Shown here: positions 10,551-35,240 of the stretch, piece after piece
How the letters are laid out: every line of letters begins with the position of its first letter
Numbering within the stretch: position 1 is the first letter of the stretch
DNA from: an uncultured beta proteobacterium
Lineage (GTDB): Bacteria > Pseudomonadota > Gammaproteobacteria > Burkholderiales > SG8-41
Direction: 5' to 3'
DNA: 64,000 bases
Assembly (NCBI GenBank): GCA_963699525.1
Contig: CAVOUI010000012.1
Span: forward strand, 47,839 to 111,838
Notes under the pieces: generated by a model
Databases searched by the model: none
Seen by the model: only the letters and a program-made list of their open reading frames with translations
What the model was told of the DNA's origin: nothing
Program-made: the position numbers and the translations under genes

Positions 10551-10725
10551 GGACCCGGCCGCGGGGTCAGACCCCCTTGATGCGGTAGTGGCAGCCCGCC
10601 GCGGACTCGAACCGCGAACCTTCCGCTTCAGAGGCGGACGCTCTACCAATTGCGCTAGCGGGCAGCAGGTTTGCCGGACCGGGGTCCGGTCTCGTTCGAC
10701 CGTGCGCTGTCGTGGGAAGTTCGAA
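10551..10725. repeat. Direct repeat copy 2 (tRNA-Gln plus leader and trailer)
   Basis: ~90% identical to 671-846. Confidence 0.8.
10589..10664 (-). tRNA. tRNA-Gln (anticodon CTG), second copy
   Basis: Identical to the 710-785 gene. Confidence 0.8.
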
Positions 10726-31427: not shown

Positions 31428-32573
31428 TCATCGGATCTTCACCAGATCCTTGAGCACCGCGTCGAGGCCGCCGAATACCGAGATCTTGTCGATCTTCTCG
31501 GTGACCTTCTCCAGCGTCTCCAGCTCCTTCAGCCGCAGCGCGGTCGGGTTGTCTTCCATCACTCGCGCGGTGTTCAGCAGCGAGCGGGTCGCAGCGGTTT
31601 CTTCGCGACGGCGAATGACGTTCGCCAGCGCGATCTTCTCCGCCTCCACCACCTTCGCCAGGATCACCTTCATTTCACCCGGCAGGATGATGTCCTTTAC
31701 GCCGACCGAGTCGACTTCCAGGCCGAAGCCTTCGACACGGCGCTTGATGTGCTCTGCCACGACCTGGTCGACCTGGACCTTGTTCTCCAGCAGCTCGTCC
31801 AGGGTGCGGGTGCCGATCGCAGCGCGCAGGCCGAACTGGAGCTCCTTGTACAGGTAGTCCACCGGCTTGGCCTGCTTGGCGAAGGCCTCACGCACGTCGG
31901 TCACGCGGTAGCCTGCGTTCAGGTTCACGCGCAGCGGCACCTTGTCCTTGGTCAGGATCTCCTGGCCCGCCACTTCGATTACCTGGAGGCGCAGATCGAC
32001 GAACTCGACGCGCACGTCGCGGCCGAAGCGGAAGTACGCCCGCAGGCCGGCATCCAGCACGTCGACCAGCTTGCCGTCGACGTAGAGGACGCCCGCGTGG
32101 AACTGCGGCACCTGCACGCCGTACACGCCCTCGGCGCCCTTCACCAGCGCCTTGAAGCCGGTGCCGGTGAACGCGACGAGCTGCGGGACGAGCTTGGCGC
32201 CGACCTCGAAGTCCTTCTCGATGTCGATGCGCTCGAAGCGCAGGTCGATGTAGCCCTTGAAGTACAGGCGGCGGGTGTTCGGCGCCAGCACTTCGGCGAG
32301 CACGCCGTTCTCGAAGCGCAGGCCGACTTCCGCCGGGCCCAGCGCCACGACGTGGAACTCGCGCTCCACGATCGCCGGCTCGGCCTTCACCAGGTACTCC
32401 GCCAGGCGGTGCTCGAAACGCGGCTCGGCGAGCGCGAACTTCTCCGCGGTCAGCCGCTGCAGCGGGTCGAAGCGCAGGTGCTCGCCCGGGCCCAGGATCT
32501 CGACGAAGTCGCCGTGGTCGAACAGGAGCGCGCGTTCGTCCTTCTTCACATGAAACTTCTGAAACAGCATCAT
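31428..32573 (-). CDS. SPFH/band-7 domain protein (slipin-like)
   Basis: 381 aa, SPFH core, C-terminal coiled coil. Confidence 0.8.
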   Translation of the reverse strand: MMLFQKFHVKKDERALLFDHGDFVEILGPGEHLRFDPLQRLTAEKFALAEPRFEHRLAEYLVKAEPAIVEREFHVVALGPAEVGLRFENGVLAEVLAPNTRRLYFKGYIDLRFERIDIEKDFEVGAKLVPQLVAFTGTGFKALVKGAEGVYGVQVPQFHAGVLYVDGKLVDVLDAGLRAYFRFGRDVRVEFVDLRLQVIEVAGQEILTKDKVPLRVNLNAGYRVTDVREAFAKQAKPVDYLYKELQFGLRAAIGTRTLDELLENKVQVDQVVAEHIKRRVEGFGLEVDSVGVKDIILPGEMKVILAKVVEAEKIALANVIRRREETAATRSLLNTARVMEDNPTALRLKELETLEKVTEKIDKISVFGGLDAVLKDLVKIR

Positions 32574-32982
32574 TTTCGTTCTCCTTTCCTTGTCTAAAAC
32601 ACATCGTTGCGATCAAGCGCAGCACGTCGGCTTCGCGCTCGGTCAGGCGTACGGTCTGGTCCACGACATCCTCCTTCACCACTACCGCTGTTCACTCCGC
32701 TTTTCCTTTCGCCCACCGCCTCGTCAACAAAAACGGGAATCCGGCCTCCCGAACGCCCGGCGGGCTCCGCCGCGCGCGCGAGGGAAGACAGCCGCGCCTT
32801 GCGCCCCGCTCATCCCGCCCGTTGCTCCGGACGGGGTGCGCCGGCTCGCTCGGCTGTTGCCGCTTCGCCCGCGAGCGCCGCACGGCGCTCTCGGTCTGGC
32901 GCCCGGTGCCTGCACGGCGGTGCTCTGCCGCGCATGCTGAAGCCGGCCCCGGTACTACGGTTAAAGGCACTTGCGATGCCCT

Positions 32983-33052
32983 TAGTTGGAGCGGGAGTCG
33001 AACCCGCGACTCGTCGATTACAAGTCGACTGCTCTACCTACTGAGCTATCCA
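32983..33052 (-). tRNA. tRNA-Thr(TGT)-like remnant: the D, anticodon and T arms are intact but the 5' acceptor strand is missing or unpaired (pseudo-tRNA)
   Basis: Anticodon arm GTCGA-CTTGTAA-TCGAC, T arm GCGGG-TTCGACT-CCCGC; it starts directly after the CCA of the next tRNA; acceptor pairing is only 4 of 7. Confidence 0.4.
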
Positions 33053-33125
33053 TGGCGACGGATATGGGAGTCGAACCCATGACCTCGGTCGTCCGGACCG
33101 CGCTCTACCGCTGAGCTAATCCGTC
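33053..33125 (-). tRNA. tRNA-like gene with a 5-nt anticodon loop (CGGAC); identity undetermined
   Basis: Perfect acceptor GACGGAT/ATCCGTC, D arm GCTC/GAGC, T arm ATGGG-TTCGACT-CCCAT, G73 and CCA; the anticodon stem CGGTC/GACCG closes a 5-nt loop. Confidence 0.5.
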
Positions 33126-33256
33126 CAACATCCGCCGCTCCCGCGCCGCGGTACACGCCAAGCCGATGTTTCAGGCCGAGCGCGCCAGGGAGGACTCACG
33201 AGCCTCGCCCGCTGCGATGTTTCGCGTTCACGACGAATTCTGTGCAGGGATGTGGC

Positions 33257-33323
33257 TGGGGTGATCCGCCGGATTCGCACCGGCACTCCCGGAGTCACGG
33301 TCCGGTGTGCTGCTGTTACACCA
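33257..33323 (-). tRNA. Degenerate tRNA-His-like remnant
   Basis: Anticodon arm CCGGA-CCGTGAC-TCCGG (GTG), T arm GCCGG-TGCGAAT-CCGGC, 3' GGATCAC-C-CCA; the D arm and 5' acceptor are degraded. Confidence 0.35.
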
Positions 33324-33337
33324 GGATCTCCGTTGTC

Positions 33338-33413
33338 TGGCTGTCCAGGCAGGCTTCGAACCTGCACGCCTCGCGTTAACAGCGCGCCGCTCTACCGGTT
33401 GAGCTACTGGACA
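33338..33413 (-). tRNA. tRNA-Asn (GTT)
   Basis: Canonical cloverleaf, loop CTGTTAA, CCA encoded. Confidence 0.85.
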
Positions 33414-33418
33414 AAAGC

Positions 33419-33493
33419 TGGTACCGGCCCACGGAATTGAACCGCGCGTCGCCCGCTTATCGGGCGGGTGCTCTGCCGTTGAGCTAGACCGGC
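33419..33493 (-). tRNA. tRNA-Ile (GAT) with C33 in place of the universal U33
   Basis: Anticodon loop CCGATAA; acceptor has two G-U pairs; T loop TTCAATT. Confidence 0.7.
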
Positions 33494-33498
33494 GAAAC

Positions 33499-33573
33499 GG
33501 GCGAGGGCGCCTGGATTCGAACCAGGGACATCCGGCTTCAGAGGCCGGCGTTCTACCGCTGAACTACGCCCCG
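33499..33573 (-). tRNA. tRNA-Gln (CTG), distinct in sequence from the 710 and 10589 copies; no CCA encoded (CCC follows)
   Basis: Anticodon arm CCGGC-CTCTGAA-GCCGG; T arm CCTGG-TTCGAAT-CCAGG; 1:72 is a C-C mismatch. Confidence 0.7.
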
Positions 33574-33577
33574 ATAC

Positions 33578-33653
33578 TGGCGCTTCCCCTCCGTTACGAT
33601 CGGAGCTCTCCGGCTCTTCAGGCCGGCGCTGTCACCAGATCAGCTAGAGAAGC
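33578..33653 (-). tRNA. tRNA-Phe (GAA) with a T-loop ATCGTAA (A54/T58 swapped relative to the canonical T54/A58)
   Basis: 76 nt; loop CTGAAGA; otherwise a regular cloverleaf with CCA. Confidence 0.7.
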
Positions 33654-33659
33654 CTGTGT

Positions 33660-33738
33660 TGGTGCCCCGGGCGTCGATTCGAACGCGCGTCCTCCTGCGT
33701 ACTAGGCAGGCGCTCTTCCGGCTGAGCTACGCGGGGCG
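33660..33738 (-). tRNA. Defective tRNA-like gene with anticodon AGT (Thr-like): one extra nucleotide before the D stem and an unpaired T stem
   Basis: Anticodon arm CCTGC-CTAGTAC-GCAGG; the T-loop TTCGAAT has non-complementary flanks GCGCG/CGACG. Confidence 0.4.
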
Positions 33739-33815
33739 TGGTGGTTCCGCTTCGATTCGAACGAAGGATTCCCGGGTTATGAGCCCGGTGCTTTGAGCCG
33801 CTAAGCTACGGAACC
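33739..33815 (-). tRNA. tRNA-Met (CAT), elongator type (G1-C72 paired)
   Basis: Perfect cloverleaf GGTTCCG...CGGAACC-A-CCA. Confidence 0.9.
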
Positions 33816-33822
33816 TCGTGTC

Positions 33823-33898
33823 TGGTACTCGGTGATGGTCTCGAACCATCGACCTCCTGTTTGTAAGACAGGCGCTCTGCCTTCTGAGCTAACCGAGC
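33823..33898 (-). tRNA. tRNA-Val (TAC)
   Basis: Loop CTTACAA; canonical arms; CCA. Confidence 0.9.
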
Positions 33899-33899
33899 A

Positions 33900-34121
33900 T
33901 GGTCGGCGCGGCAGGAGTTGAACCTGGCCCGCGGAGGGCGGAGCAGTGCCTGCGCCCCTTGGCGTAGGTGCGACCCCGTAGCGGGCCGAGCGCGCCGGTT
34001 TCATTCCGCGGGCCTATGCACGCCTTTGCGGTCGCATCCCCATGAATGGGGCCCCTGCTCCACGCTCCGGCGCGCCTTTCTGATTAAGAGTCAGCTACTC
34101 TGCCTGTTGAGTTACGCGCCG
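33900..34121 (-). tRNA. Split or interrupted tRNA-Lys (CTT): the 5' part (34075-34121: acceptor, D arm, anticodon arm) and the 3' part (33900-33927: T arm, acceptor, ACCA) are separated by ~147 bp of non-tRNA sequence
   Basis: 5' acceptor CGGCGCG pairs 7 of 7 with 3' CGCGCCG; anticodon arm GCTGA-CTCTTAA-TCAGA; T arm CCAGG-TTCAACT-CCTGC; the insert starts CGCGCCGG (a copy of the 3' acceptor) and contains the hairpin CCCCATTCATGGGG. Confidence 0.5.
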
Positions 34122-34129
34122 TGAAATCG

Positions 34130-34205
34130 TGGCGACGCTGGCGGGAGTCGAACCCGCGGCTTCTCGCTCGACAGGCGAGCACTCTGGCCGCTGAGTTACA
34201 GCGTC
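34130..34205 (-). tRNA. tRNA-Asp (GTC)
   Basis: Loop CTGTCGA, G73, CCA. Confidence 0.9.
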
Positions 34206-34214
34206 GTTCGAAAA

Positions 34215-34293
34215 TGGCGCCCCCGGAAGGATTTGAACCCTCGACCTCGCGGGCCGTGACCGCGCGCTCTGCGATTCCCTGAGCTACGGGGGC
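34215..34293 (-). tRNA. tRNA-Arg (ACG) with an 11-nt D loop and an atypical anticodon loop TCACGGC (C33)
   Basis: Perfect acceptor GCCCCCG/CGGGGGC; anticodon stem CGCGG/CCGCG. Confidence 0.65.
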
Positions 34294-34299
34294 AATTGT

Positions 34300-34376
34300 T
34301 GGTCTCGCCGGCAGGATTCGAACCTGCGGCCTCCCCGTCCCGAACGGGGCGCGCTGACCTGCTGCGCTACAGCGAG
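34300..34376 (-). tRNA. tRNA-Pro (CGG)
   Basis: Loop TTCGGGA, A73, CCA. Confidence 0.85.
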
Positions 34377-34379
34377 AAA

Positions 34380-34451
34380 TGTTCCCGGCCGGAATTGAAC
34401 CGGCATCTGCGGCTTGAAAGGCCGCCGTCCTCACCATTAGACGAAGGGAAC
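34380..34451 (-). tRNA. tRNA-Glu (TTC), no CCA encoded
   Basis: Glu-type 3-bp D stem GTC/GAC, loop CTTTCAA, T arm GCCGG-TTCAATT-CCGGC. Confidence 0.8.
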
Positions 34452-34455
34452 CCTT

Positions 34456-34529
34456 TGGGGCGGGCAGCGAGGATCGAACTCGCATCTCGACGCTGGCAAC
34501 GTCGCGCTCTACCGTTGAGCCATGTCCGC
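34456..34529 (-). tRNA. tRNA-Gly (GCC)
   Basis: Loop TTGCCAG, T arm GCGAG-TTCGATC-CTCGC, CCA; one A-C mismatch in the acceptor. Confidence 0.8.
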
Positions 34530-34625
34530 CCGGTATTGGCCACATCCCAAGTTGTAAAAGAACATTCCGCTTCATCCGGTCGCTATGCCGGAGCGGGACG
34601 GAAGCGCTTTGCTCCCGTCGAAATC

Positions 34626-34702
34626 TGGTGCCCCACCCGGGATTCGAACCCGGAGATCCATGTTTCTGAAACATGCGCGTATGCCGATTCCGCCAGCGGG
34701 GC
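34626..34702 (-). tRNA. tRNA-Leu (CAG)-like gene with a 5-nt variable loop (no long variable arm) but a Leu-type D arm
   Basis: TG-GCG-GAATCGGCATA-CGC D arm as in bacterial tRNA-Leu; anticodon arm CATGT-TTCAGAA-ACATG; variable GATCT; A73; CCA. Confidence 0.55.
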
Positions 34703-34704
34703 TT

Positions 34705-34749
34705 AAAAAACAAAAAGCCCGGGGACCTTTCGGTGCAACCCGGGCTTTT
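34705..34749 (-). terminator. GC hairpin plus a T-run (bidirectional A/T flanks) lying immediately 5' of the tRNA array
   Basis: AGCCCGGG-N15-CCCGGGCT with TTTTTGTTTTTT on the minus strand. Confidence 0.6.
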
Positions 34750-34993
34750 GGAAGAAGCGGACGTGGTACGCGTCACGCGTCTCCGGCAGCACGGGTCGTA
34801 CGGGCGCCTTCCTGCCGCGATTGCGCAAGCAACCGTGGGTCGTCGGACGCCTGGGGGTGCACAGGCACATGCCCCAGCGAGGCCCTTTGGGTAAGGCAAT
34901 CTGTCAATCCTGCAAGTCGCATTTCAATCCCATCCGTGTTGAAGTTCGTTCGTGCCCGTGTAACGCACTGCTACCAAACGCGTTGACACCCTG

Positions 34994-35030
34994 AAAACAA
35001 AAAGCCCGGAGCGCTTGCGCGGTCCGGGCC
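34994..35030 (-). terminator. Rho-independent terminator downstream of the TctC gene 35241-36227
   Basis: GCCCGGA-N12-TCCGGGC with TTTTTGTTTTC on the minus strand. Confidence 0.65.
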
Positions 35031-35240
35031 TTCGGAAAGCGGGTCTTCCGACCTCAATAGTCTCCCGAAGGCACGCGCGCGGGCCCCTCGCCGTTCTCAA
35101 GGCGATCGAGCGCCGGCTGAAAGGCGCTCGCTAGCAGGCCTGGCTGCCGTATTCCGCAAATGTTCGCTCGTAATCTCATGTTTCGCTCGATTGCAAGGGC
35201 GCGCATTCTGGACCGCTGCGTGCTTGAAGTCAAGACTTTT

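Follow-up and report, generated by a model that had tools for sequence, protein, structure and literature searches.

Why would a bacterial chromosome carry a compact row of transfer RNA (tRNA) genes, many of which have bases that working tRNAs hardly ever have? The question is raised by a 64,000-nucleotide stretch of DNA from an uncultured Burkholderiales bacterium (contig CAVOUI010000012.1, positions 47,839 to 111,838; hereafter the window), in which 17 tRNA-like genes follow one another on the minus strand between positions 32985 and 34702. The purpose of accessory tRNA arrays of this kind is debated, with codon supply, a stress reserve and protection against tRNA-cleaving toxins all under discussion. 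A first-pass annotation, made from the letters of the window alone, described about half of the genes as structurally non-canonical and likened the whole to horizontally acquired arrays of doubtful function. Comparison with related loci points to a different answer, which is held here with moderate confidence: the locus would be a conserved chromosomal accessory tRNA operon (an "L-array"), serving uncultured soil Burkholderiales as a reserve tRNA set gated by terminators.

Composition of the array

Between 33053 and 34702 ARAGORN called 15 tRNA genes, all of them on the minus strand, and the Rfam tRNA model RF00005 confirmed 14 of these above its gathering score, missing only tRNA-Phe. The same model added a truncated tRNA-like element (32987–33052, 56.1 bits) and, once the threshold was relaxed, the 5′ portion of a split tRNA-Lys(CTT) (34067–34121, 33.4 bits, E = 1.5e-4), which brings the total to 17. 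The 15 full genes or elements seen by Rfam score from 37.6 to 68.5 bits, above the gathering threshold of 29. Of the 16 matches that Rfam gives in the array, 15 have E-values between 1e-5 and 3e-14. Within 2.5 kb, such a density of tRNA matches is far beyond chance. The count of 17 tRNA-like genes on one strand in 1.7 kb, as annotated at first pass, is therefore borne out by ARAGORN and Rfam together, and amounts to about 10 genes per kb (17 in 1.72 kb).

Read along the minus strand, the array begins with Leu(CAG), which is followed after a 96-nt gap by Gly(GCC), Glu(TTC), Pro(CGG), Arg(ACG), Asp(GTC), the split Lys(CTT), Val(TAC), Met(CAT), Thr(AGT), Phe(GAA), Gln(CTG), Ile(GAT), Asn(GTT) and His(GTG). 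A gap of 131 nt then leads to two tRNA-like elements, here named A (with a 5-nt anticodon loop) and B (with a truncated acceptor stem). The spacers had been described as 0–10 nt long; this holds for most of them (0–9 nt), the Leu–Gly and His–A gaps being the two exceptions. Each anticodon is present once, and no tandem repeat or periodic pattern was found inside the array. Genes for Ser, Tyr, Ala, Cys and Trp are indeed absent.

The structural oddities listed at first pass are real. Cloverleaf drawings and the sequence itself display the Leu gene with a short variable loop, C33 in Ile, the A54/T58 state of Phe, C33 and a long D loop in Arg, the 5-nt anticodon loop, a Thr(AGT) gene with irregular T and acceptor stems, and the split Lys. 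The two members without an encoded CCA are Glu and Gln. In the window, C33 occurs in Arg, Ile, His and element A, A54 in Phe and G55 in His. Seven genes had been called canonical (Asn, Met, Val, Asp, Pro, Glu and Gly); of these, Gly (A5·C68, C73), Glu (U7·C66, A73) and Asn (G27·A43) have blemishes of their own.

Homologous arrays in related loci

A soluble SPFH/slipin gene is the constant downstream neighbour of the array family (Table 1). Its homologues number in the thousands, many of them 80–95% identical, and the DNA around seven was fetched. A homologous tRNA array lies directly upstream in five of the seven (L081, L082 with L083 and L084, L180 and L181). The other two (L085 and L179, on contigs of 2.2 Mb and 0.8 Mb) are without any tRNA gene; their slipin proteins are 85% identical to that of the window. 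In a three-way alignment, several non-tRNA blocks are conserved along with the tRNAs.

An invariant 20-mer from the spacer between tRNA-His and element A (the region named element X below) was then used to scan JGI metagenomes, and 93 stretches containing it were retrieved. Two of these (L088 and L119) are apparent chance matches; the rest share one gene order. In all, the same array recurs in about 95 independent metagenomic loci. The family order is Leu(CAG) / Gly, Glu, Ala(TGC), Pro, (Tyr(GTA), long-armed), Arg, Asp, Lys, Val, Met, Thr(AGT), Phe, (Trp), Gln, Ile, Asn, His / X / A / B / Y, and the fullest loci give 20 ARAGORN calls (L095 and L143). Among the 38 distinct loci with at least 1.9 kb of sequence upstream of X, the tRNA gene count for that part varies between 0 and 18, 16 being the mode. 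The arrays form nested subsets of a single ancestral order, and this means that genes were lost repeatedly. The slipin gene starts 460–770 nt after the 20-mer in 59 of the 62 loci whose downstream sequence extends to 900 nt or more, and the protein is 54–100% identical across array loci. In many loci this gene is preceded by a small gene with a GerE-type helix-turn-helix (HTH) and followed by one for an AAA ATPase of 351 amino acids. A literature search on the association of tRNA array, slipin and AAA protein returned nothing relevant.

Some family members show signs of remoulding. A Glu-type body carries a CCA (Trp) anticodon in L087, and the Trp(CCA) gene of full arrays (L090/L143 and others) resembles a duplicate of the neighbouring Gln(CTG) gene with an altered anticodon. 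The "Stop TTA" calls made by ARAGORN in nine loci, which would mean an ochre suppressor tRNA, were traced to a register shift; the genes are Asn(GTT) with C33.

Selection on fold, anticodon and identity

The family makes it possible to ask whether the array is still under selection for use as tRNA. The comparative set was collected with ARAGORN, which reports well-folded genes only, and its sequences are phylogenetically related, so the pairing percentages that follow are upper bounds, inflated to an indefinite extent. Slot by slot, 94–99.8% of the stem cells in the alignments of distinct sequences hold standard pairs, and 2 to 18 of the roughly 21 pairs have changed on both sides. Thr(AGT) is an exception, with 75.8% of stem cells paired and zero double-sided changes. 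A formal test on Leu(CAG), using 25 distinct sequences, found all 500 of 500 stem cells paired (100%) and compensatory changes in 10 of the 20 pairs. None of 500 shuffles reached these values, and sliding the structure by 1–3 columns lowered the pairing to 30–57%.

Anticodons were compared after genes had been assigned to slots with the anticodon loop masked. Within each slot they are either invariant or differ only at position 34, synonymously (Glu TTC/CTC, Ala TGC/CGC, Arg ACG/GCG, Val TAC/CAC and Thr AGT/TGT). Three isolated exceptions to this rule look like remoulding events. Each anticodon of the array also reads the commonest codon of its amino acid, as counted over 9,039 codons in 27 genes of the window; these codons are CTG, GGC, GAG, CCG, CGC, GAC, AAG, GTG, ACC, TTC, CAG, ATC, AAC and CAC, to which slots occurring only elsewhere in the family add GCG and TAC.

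Identity marks are kept as well. Ala has G3·U70 and A73 in 13/13 sequences, Pro has C1-G72 and A73 in 36/36, and Thr has G1-C72 and C2-G71 in 12/12. His has an encoded G-1 in 48/50 and C73 in 50/50. A mismatched or weak 1-72 pair is the family rule for Gln, most sequences of which have G73. The discriminator is G73 in the Asp, Asn and Trp slots and A73 in the Leu, Lys, Val, Ile, Met and Tyr slots, with Thr also having A73, and CCA is encoded in about 93% of family sequences. Stem pairing, synonymous-only anticodon change, identity marks and the match to codon usage are four independent lines which argue that the family encodes working tRNAs. As far as sequence can tell, these would be chargeable and able to decode, and are probably used in translation. 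The family evidence largely fails to bear out a doubtful function, or the idea that half of the genes are structurally broken; stems, anticodons and identity marks have been kept.

Non-canonical bases as family traits

The short-arm Leu, the irregular Thr(AGT), C33 and the odd T loops of Phe, Val and His are conserved family traits, and the recurrent oddities in general are inherited features, tolerated or selected. The same oddities are found in many distinct sequences from relatives and are no random indels or assembly errors. The "degenerate His and Thr remnants" of the first-pass annotation are a case in point: the features are present, but the oddities of His and the Thr-like remnant (element B) recur across the family and do not reflect decay.

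To our knowledge, all bacterial tRNA-Leu have the long variable arm of class II tRNAs. The Leu(CAG) gene of the array lacks it, with a variable region of 4–5 nt in 31/31 distinct sequences, while its D arm (UGGCGGAAUCGGCAUACGCG) is plainly of the bacterial tRNA-Leu type and A73 is kept. It is a natural bacterial tRNA-Leu without a long arm that is under strong structural selection, and it suggests that a bacterial tRNA-Leu can shed the arm while such selection continues. Thr(AGT) is uniform as well. In 12 of 12 distinct sequences an additional nucleotide follows the 5′ strand of the acceptor stem and an A bulges from the T stem; all of them have the anticodon AGT and the loop TTCGAAT, and end in ACCA.

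The array does not keep to the universal U33/T54/U55/C56 set. Of its departures, C33 depends on the slot; it was seen in Ile (25/32), His (23/50), Tyr (5/5), Val (10/33), Glu (7/25), Arg (7/35) and Pro (6/36), and never in the Leu, Lys, Gln, Met, Asp and Ala slots. The Arg loop of the window, TCACGGC, is found in six distinct family sequences. Position 54 is C or A in 34/37 Phe and 26/33 Val sequences, G55 occurs in 22/50 His sequences, and C56 is missing in 10/13 Ala sequences. The A54/T58 state of the Phe gene in the window is common to nine distinct sequences; C54/A58 and A54/A58 occur as well, so this is tolerated variation and no strict swap. The A2·A71 mismatch of His recurs in the family, and C73 is found in 10/16 Gly sequences. 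U33, T54, Ψ55 and C56 may then be dispensable in a sizeable tRNA set that otherwise bears the marks of charging and use. For annotation, it follows as a warning that a "pseudo-tRNA" call in such an array is not evidence of decay.

Proposed transcription and processing

How might such a set be expressed? A sigma-70-like promoter heads the module, and its -35 and -10 hexamers are conserved in a leader alignment of 27 loci and in array-less loci. Between the promoter and tRNA-Leu lie two units, each made up of a small open reading frame (ORF) and a terminator-like hairpin (ORF1 with T1, ORF2 with T2). ORF1 has 41 codons in at least 11 loci and 42 in two, and its stop lies 39–44 nt before the U-tract of T1. 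It has a Shine-Dalgarno sequence of the GAGGAA type in most loci, the upstream sequence of the window (CGAGCGAAAC) being without a clear one. ORF2 falls into five length classes; in each, the reading frame is open from a conserved ATG up to a stop codon that lies closely upstream of T2. This stop is 65–73 nt before tRNA-Leu, or 114 nt in the L090 class, which has about 45 nt between T2 and tRNA-Leu. T1 and T2 are 85% alike over 26 nt. Array-less loci have one ORF/hairpin unit directly before X. The U-tract of T2 ends about 2–3 nt before tRNA-Leu, both here and in most loci; no promoter fits between the two, and the array must therefore be transcribed by read-through.

The tandem arrangement of small ORFs and hairpins resembles leader-peptide control. 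A classical attenuator with an alternative antiterminator was tried as a model and rejected, as masking upstream segments never displaced T2. Within the array, a 25-nt motif in the Leu–Gly spacer (GTTCTTTTACAACTTGGGATGTGGC) is retained even where the remainder of the spacer is deleted. It may be an internal promoter or a protein-binding site; as a promoter it has a -35-like TTTACA, but no convincing -10 was found by eye, and this candidate was set aside.

In the mechanism proposed here, transcription of the minus strand would start from the promoter near 35233 and pass through both ORF/hairpin units. Expression would most likely depend on read-through, being low in normal growth and conditional on a signal. 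The transcript would be cut by RNase P and 3′-processing enzymes into chargeable tRNAs and into the RNAs X and Y, which are punctuated by modules A and B and presumably released by processing of the tRNA type. The ancestral form would have numbered some 18 tRNA genes, about one for each amino acid except Ser and Cys, and each would read the commonest codon of these GC-rich genomes. The tRNAs would keep the marks for their cognate aminoacyl-tRNA synthetases while tolerating C33, non-T54, G55, non-C56 and a short-arm Leu, and would act as a reserve or alternative tRNA pool. Possibly, and this is speculation by analogy, they would also be less susceptible to enzymes whose targets for attack or modification are anticodon or T loops of the standard kind.

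A bolder proposal, which is doubtful, unites the whole 3.9-kb module in a single stress-responsive RNA operon of a new type. In that scheme the two leader gates would sense the state of translation and let transcription through into the reserve tRNAs, the loop variants would make these tRNAs refractory to tRNA-targeting toxins or modification enzymes, X and Y, made on the same transcript and freed by modules A and B, would control the GerE-slipin-AAA operon, and B would be no relic but a diversifying decoy or sensor.

Elements A, B, X and Y

Not everything in the array that is shaped like a tRNA is one. Short loops in element A (CGGAC(A), AACC) are found in 19 distinct sequences, often with the CCA end kept, and other subfamilies have a cloverleaf with a CAT loop at this position. 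Element B occurs in 62 distinct sequences, array-less loci among them. The D and T arms of B hardly vary, and its short acceptor stem covaries (GGA/TCC, CCA/TGG, GCA/TGC). At the anticodon triplet it is hypervariable, with positions 32, 33, 37 and 38 conserved, and no covarying partner for the hypervariable loop was found in 26 aligned X-to-Y regions. Both elements are conserved modules in the shape of a tRNA and are not tRNAs, which suggests that such modules can be conserved for a purpose other than decoding. Element B is also an internal control for what an unconstrained anticodon looks like at this locus, and the true slots of the array look unlike it.

Elements X and Y are structured and match no Rfam family. 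The consensus fold of X has a long-range closing helix with some covariation. That of Y, from 26 sequences, has 54 pairs, of which 95.7% are canonical and 20 have changed on both sides. The 5′ strand of Y can pair with the terminator-like hairpin at its 3′ end, a layout like that of a riboswitch. Where the array is absent, X, B, Y and the slipin gene are retained. Rfam matches of the YrlA-like and mascRNA-like kinds on the tRNA-like parts are weak and far below gathering scores.

Competing explanations

Several observations weigh against a functional reserve set. Array members have often been lost among loci. T2 looks like an efficient intrinsic terminator and no antiterminator fold was found, so the array could be essentially silent. 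C33 is present in 92 of 490 distinct array sequences (19%), and among the same 490 the residue is other than T54 in 62, other than U55 in 27 and other than C56 in 24. Positions 33, 54, 55 and 56 are almost invariant in working bacterial elongator tRNAs, and departures from them fit relaxed constraint. The Phe gene is invisible to the Rfam tRNA model, and the pairing figures gain from the ARAGORN-only harvest and from kinship among the sequences. Taken in this direction, the array would be a decaying relic: an old acquisition, unused and drifting, from which gene after gene is lost while only X, B, Y and the slipin operon remain functional. The gene number of 0–18 per locus, the lesions of the window itself (the Lys insert, the CCA ends and the loss of Ala, Tyr and Trp), the 19% of C33 with frequent T-loop departures, the strong terminator directly upstream and the survival of X, B, Y and slipin at loci that have lost the array would all be expected of it. 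Neutral decay, however, would break stems and randomise anticodons and identity bases, yet the stems are 94–100% paired with many double changes. Anticodons have changed only synonymously, G3·U70, G-1/C73 and C1-G72 are invariant or nearly so, and the anticodon of element B varies freely at the very locus where those of the true slots do not. A relic thus fits the losses and the odd bases, but not the synonymous-only anticodon changes or the invariant identity pairs, and it is considered unlikely.

Another account is a role outside translation, with the tRNA genes serving mainly as processing punctuation (RNase P/Z sites) that frees X, Y and other RNAs, or as decoys or sensors for tRNA-binding proteins. 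Elements A and B, which are tRNA-shaped, cannot decode or be charged and flank X and Y, lend this some weight. For a processing signal, departures from U33 and in the T loop are of less consequence, and the weak YrlA-like and mascRNA-like matches below gathering scores would be in keeping with it. Such a role has no need of anticodon meaning, discriminator bases, G3·U70 or encoded CCA, and leaves the match of anticodons to host codon usage unexplained; moreover, array-less loci still hold X, B and Y, so the 15–18 true tRNAs are not required for release. It is an improbable account. A further account is cargo of a mobile element (a prophage, integrative and conjugative element (ICE) or plasmid remnant) that inserted recently, a classical horizontally transferred array of the kind to which the first-pass annotation likened it. 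The segment from about 31.4 to 35.24 kb is missing in L001 between the ORF linked to PBP1A and TctC, upstream contexts differ in L081, L082, L180 and L181, and L-arrays are reported to spread by horizontal transfer (PMC8421152). Against this, no integrase, transposase, homing endonuclease or phage gene is adjacent, no direct repeats flank the segment, and no phage, plasmid or IMG/VR relative goes beyond single-tRNA similarity. The array always accompanies the same chromosomal slipin gene, its anticodons fit the codons of the host and its G+C content is that of the flanks. Recent acquisition is thus unproven, and slightly less credible than a role in punctuation. The annotation was on firmer ground in calling the array accessory. 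A housekeeping tRNA operon of the lineage would agree with one gene per amino acid, the codon-usage match and the retained identity elements, but there is no Ser or Cys gene, and in the window no Ala, Tyr, Trp or intact Lys either. Two other Gln(CTG) genes lie nearby, 0 of 80 loci syntenic by PBP1A have the array, close relatives (homologous loci) hold anything from 0 to 18 tRNA genes and a terminator stands directly upstream; a housekeeping operon is accordingly very improbable. The accessory, terminator-gated operon of conserved tRNAs is the reading retained below.

Comparison with known tRNA arrays

In published terms the array is an L-array, with several features not described before. L-arrays consist of supernumerary tRNAs that are usually poorly expressed; those of Anabaena are induced by translational stress and are charged in vivo (PMC8421152). 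Like the trn operon of Anabaena sp. PCC 7120 (Santamaria-Gomez et al., 2021, PMC8421152), the present array is long, tightly packed, on one strand and non-periodic, with gaps on the scale of co-transcription. Both are patchy among relatives and have some members that are pseudogenes, and the cryptic state and host control known for L-arrays may, by analogy, apply here. The differences are several. The present array belongs to a different phylum and has no homing endonuclease nearby, nor were horizontal spread or a linked mobile element, which also mark L-arrays, found for it. Its putative control lies in tandem small-ORF/terminator leaders and not in a repressor. It is constantly linked to X, Y, two tRNA-shaped modules and a GerE-slipin-AAA operon, and it has 19% C33 and a tRNA-Leu without a long arm.

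tRNA array units, such as the array on an Acidithiobacillus ICE, are likewise dense and redundant in isoacceptors (Tran et al., 2015, PMC4758250). With about 10 genes per kb the present array exceeds the density of at least 2 per kb by which these are defined, whereas its 17 genes stay below the threshold of 20 (a number reached by ARAGORN calls in the fullest relatives), and no ICE is recognisable. Nor does the locus look like a prophage or ICE tRNA cluster, its neighbours being a Crp-type regulator, slipin, TctC and peroxiredoxin, with no att-like repeats. For mycobacteriophage and mycobacterial tRNA arrays, resistance to anticodon nucleases has been proposed (van den Berg et al., 2023, PMC10264068; PMC12803027). 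These arrays share with the present one a near-complete set, loops that are non-standard beside the anticodon, avoidance of Ser and adherence to host-preferred codons. The present array differs in being chromosomal, with no host tRNase known, and in that its changes include U33C and T-loop positions. By this analogy, nuclease resistance of the array tRNAs is a lead only.

Parallels to single features exist elsewhere. Animal mitochondria have tRNA-Leu without a long variable arm, and an engineered minimal tRNA-Leu of E. coli was reportedly still charged by LeuRS in work by Larkin and colleagues from 2002. The Leu(CAG) gene resembles these in its Leu-type D arm, A73 and short variable loop; it differs in being a natural bacterial gene of the nuclear type, conserved in 31 distinct sequences. 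The large ornate RNAs GOLLD and ROOL often lie beside phage tRNA clusters, and X and Y are similarly structured non-coding RNAs in or beside a tRNA array. At about 115 nt and 230 nt, X and Y are much smaller; they are chromosomal and do not match the Rfam models of GOLLD or ROOL. With some 100 natural variants from one lineage, ranging from complete to fully deleted within a fixed framework, the family is a good system in which to study what maintains tRNA arrays.

Lesions peculiar to the window

The copy in the window (Table 1) is partly eroded. Damage found only here consists of the Lys insert, two absent CCA ends and the deletion, relative to the family order, of the Ala, Tyr and Trp genes. 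Encoded CCA has been lost in Glu and Gln though most relatives keep it; it is encoded in 22 of 25 Glu sequences of the family, which makes its absence here specific to the window. Lys is intact in 38/38 other distinct sequences, including L081 and L082. The Lys insert is GC-rich, lies at the junction of the variable loop and the T stem, and folds as a closed multibranch domain with the cloverleaf arms kept (z = -2.2 to -2.5). Its single relative, in L171 (899–1033, 77% over 70 nt, with a similar 3′ end), splits a tRNA-His at the equivalent junction; no other copy was found in the rest of the window or in 1.6 Mb of related loci. Possibly the insert is a small mobile insertion that favours tRNA genes as its sites. 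A group I intron or known ribozyme was rejected, as there is no Rfam match even at E <= 5 and the insert sits in the variable region and not in the anticodon loop.

The slipin operon has also suffered. The small HTH gene, in whose intact homologues Pfam GerE is recorded, is truncated, and the AAA ATPase gene is absent from all 64 kb of the window, so that the operon itself is partly degraded here.

Table 1. Features of the tRNA array and its surroundings, in minus-strand order (positions in the window; Rfam scores are for RF00005)
Feature	Position	Strand	Remarks
Sigma-70-like promoter TTGACT-17-CAGAAT	35205..35233	-	promoter scan; heads the module
Leader ORF1	35054..35179	-	41 codons; translation
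Terminator-like hairpin T1	34993..35030	-	GC stem, then TTTTTGTTTT; conserved in the family
Leader ORF2	34773..34922	-	49 codons here, 31-49 elsewhere; translation
Terminator-like hairpin T2	34705..34748	-	terminator scan; fold about -20 kcal/mol; conserved in the family
tRNA-Leu(CAG)	34626..34702	-	Leu-type D arm (3-bp stem, 11-nt loop), A73, 5-nt variable loop; Rfam 55.5 bits
Conserved motif GTTCTTTTACAACTTGGGATGTGGC	34538..34563	-	in the 96-nt Leu-Gly spacer; kept in the three-locus alignment and other loci
tRNA-Gly(GCC)	34456..34529	-	A5·C68, C73; Rfam 59.7 bits
tRNA-Glu(TTC)	34380..34451	-	no encoded CCA, A73, U7·C66; Rfam 61.9 bits
tRNA-Pro(CGG)	34300..34376	-	C1-G72, A73; Rfam 66.2 bits
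tRNA-Arg(ACG)	34215..34293	-	loop TCACGGC (C33), 11-nt D loop; Rfam 49.7 bits
tRNA-Asp(GTC)	34130..34205	-	canonical; Rfam 68.5 bits
tRNA-Lys(CTT), interrupted	33900..34121	-	insert of about 147-152 nt at 33928-34074; Rfam 5′ part 33.4 bits
tRNA-Val(TAC)	33823..33898	-	Rfam 67.2 bits
tRNA-Met(CAT)	33739..33815	-	elongator type, G1-C72; Rfam 66.6 bits
tRNA-Thr(AGT)	33660..33737	-	additional nucleotide following the acceptor 5′ strand, T stem with a bulged A; Rfam 37.6 bits
tRNA-Phe(GAA)	33578..33653	-	T loop ATCGTAA (A54/T58), 4-nt variable loop, G73; ARAGORN only
tRNA-Gln(CTG)	33499..33574	-	C1·C72 mismatch, G73, then CCC not CCA; Rfam 64.3 bits
tRNA-Ile(GAT)	33419..33493	-	loop CCGATAA (C33); Rfam 54.1 bits
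tRNA-Asn(GTT)	33338..33413	-	G27·A43; Rfam 59.2 bits
tRNA-His(GTG)	33257..33330	-	encoded G-1, C73, C33, G55, A2·A71; Rfam 43.6 bits
Element X, structured non-coding	33127..33240	-	70 distinct sequences aligned; contains the 20-mer used in the scan
Element A (ARAGORN "Ser GGA")	33053..33125	-	full cloverleaf, anticodon hairpin with 5-nt loop CGGAC; Rfam 55.6 bits
Element B ("Thr remnant" at first pass)	32985..33052	-	acceptor stem of 3-4 bp, CCA absent; Rfam 56.1 bits (model positions 4-67)
Element Y, structured RNA	32728..32960	-	terminator-like hairpin at the 3′ end (32751-32734 and T run), terminator scan
GerE/LuxR-type HTH gene, truncated remnant	32594..32664	-	matches the 5′ portion of the intact gene of L085, L110 and L181, then deletion
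Soluble SPFH/slipin gene	31428..32573	-	Pfam Band_7, E = 5.9e-30; constant downstream neighbour of the array family

Genomic setting

The G+C content is 62–70% throughout the window and the same in the array as in its flanks. Genes in the neighbourhood encode an EamA transporter, PBP1A, a Crp-type regulator, the SPFH/Band-7 protein, a TctC receptor, a peroxiredoxin and an esterase. The PBP1A is 84–88% identical to proteins of metagenome-assembled genomes of uncultured soil "Burkholderiales bacterium". In all 80 of 80 loci retrieved around PBP1A homologues, the array is absent within 10 kb. In the nearest informative one of them (L001) the ORF after PBP1A runs directly into the TctC orthologue, so that about 3.9 kb, from the slipin gene to the array promoter, is extra in the window. 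The region is rearranged in L003 and L024, with the Crp and TctC genes in a different order.

Searches for mobility gave negative results. No integrase, transposase, homing endonuclease/HNH or phage gene adjoins the array in the window or in the flanks of related loci that were checked, and no direct or att-like repeats flank the array segment. Collections of phages (50,697 records) and plasmids (72,556) contained similarity at the level of single tRNAs only, and the 20-mer of X is absent from IMG/VR. A known defence system was rejected as a candidate, PADLOC having no match for the slipin and only weak ones, at the level of the P-loop, for the AAA protein; NCBIfam found only distant HflK/FtsH-like similarity.

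Elsewhere in the window, two canonical tRNA-Gln(CTG) genes are encoded on the minus strand (710–785 and 10589–10664). They are clearly unlike the Gln gene of the array and make the Gln(CTG) isoacceptor, at least, redundant within the window, a point shown for Gln(CTG) only. The genes between them encode a disulfide oxidoreductase, RidA/L-PSP proteins, TctC and a lactonase, with no integrase among them. The pair is near-identical, shares about 150 nt of flanking sequence and is spaced 9.9 kb apart, and represents either a segmental duplication or an island bounded by tRNA-Gln genes.

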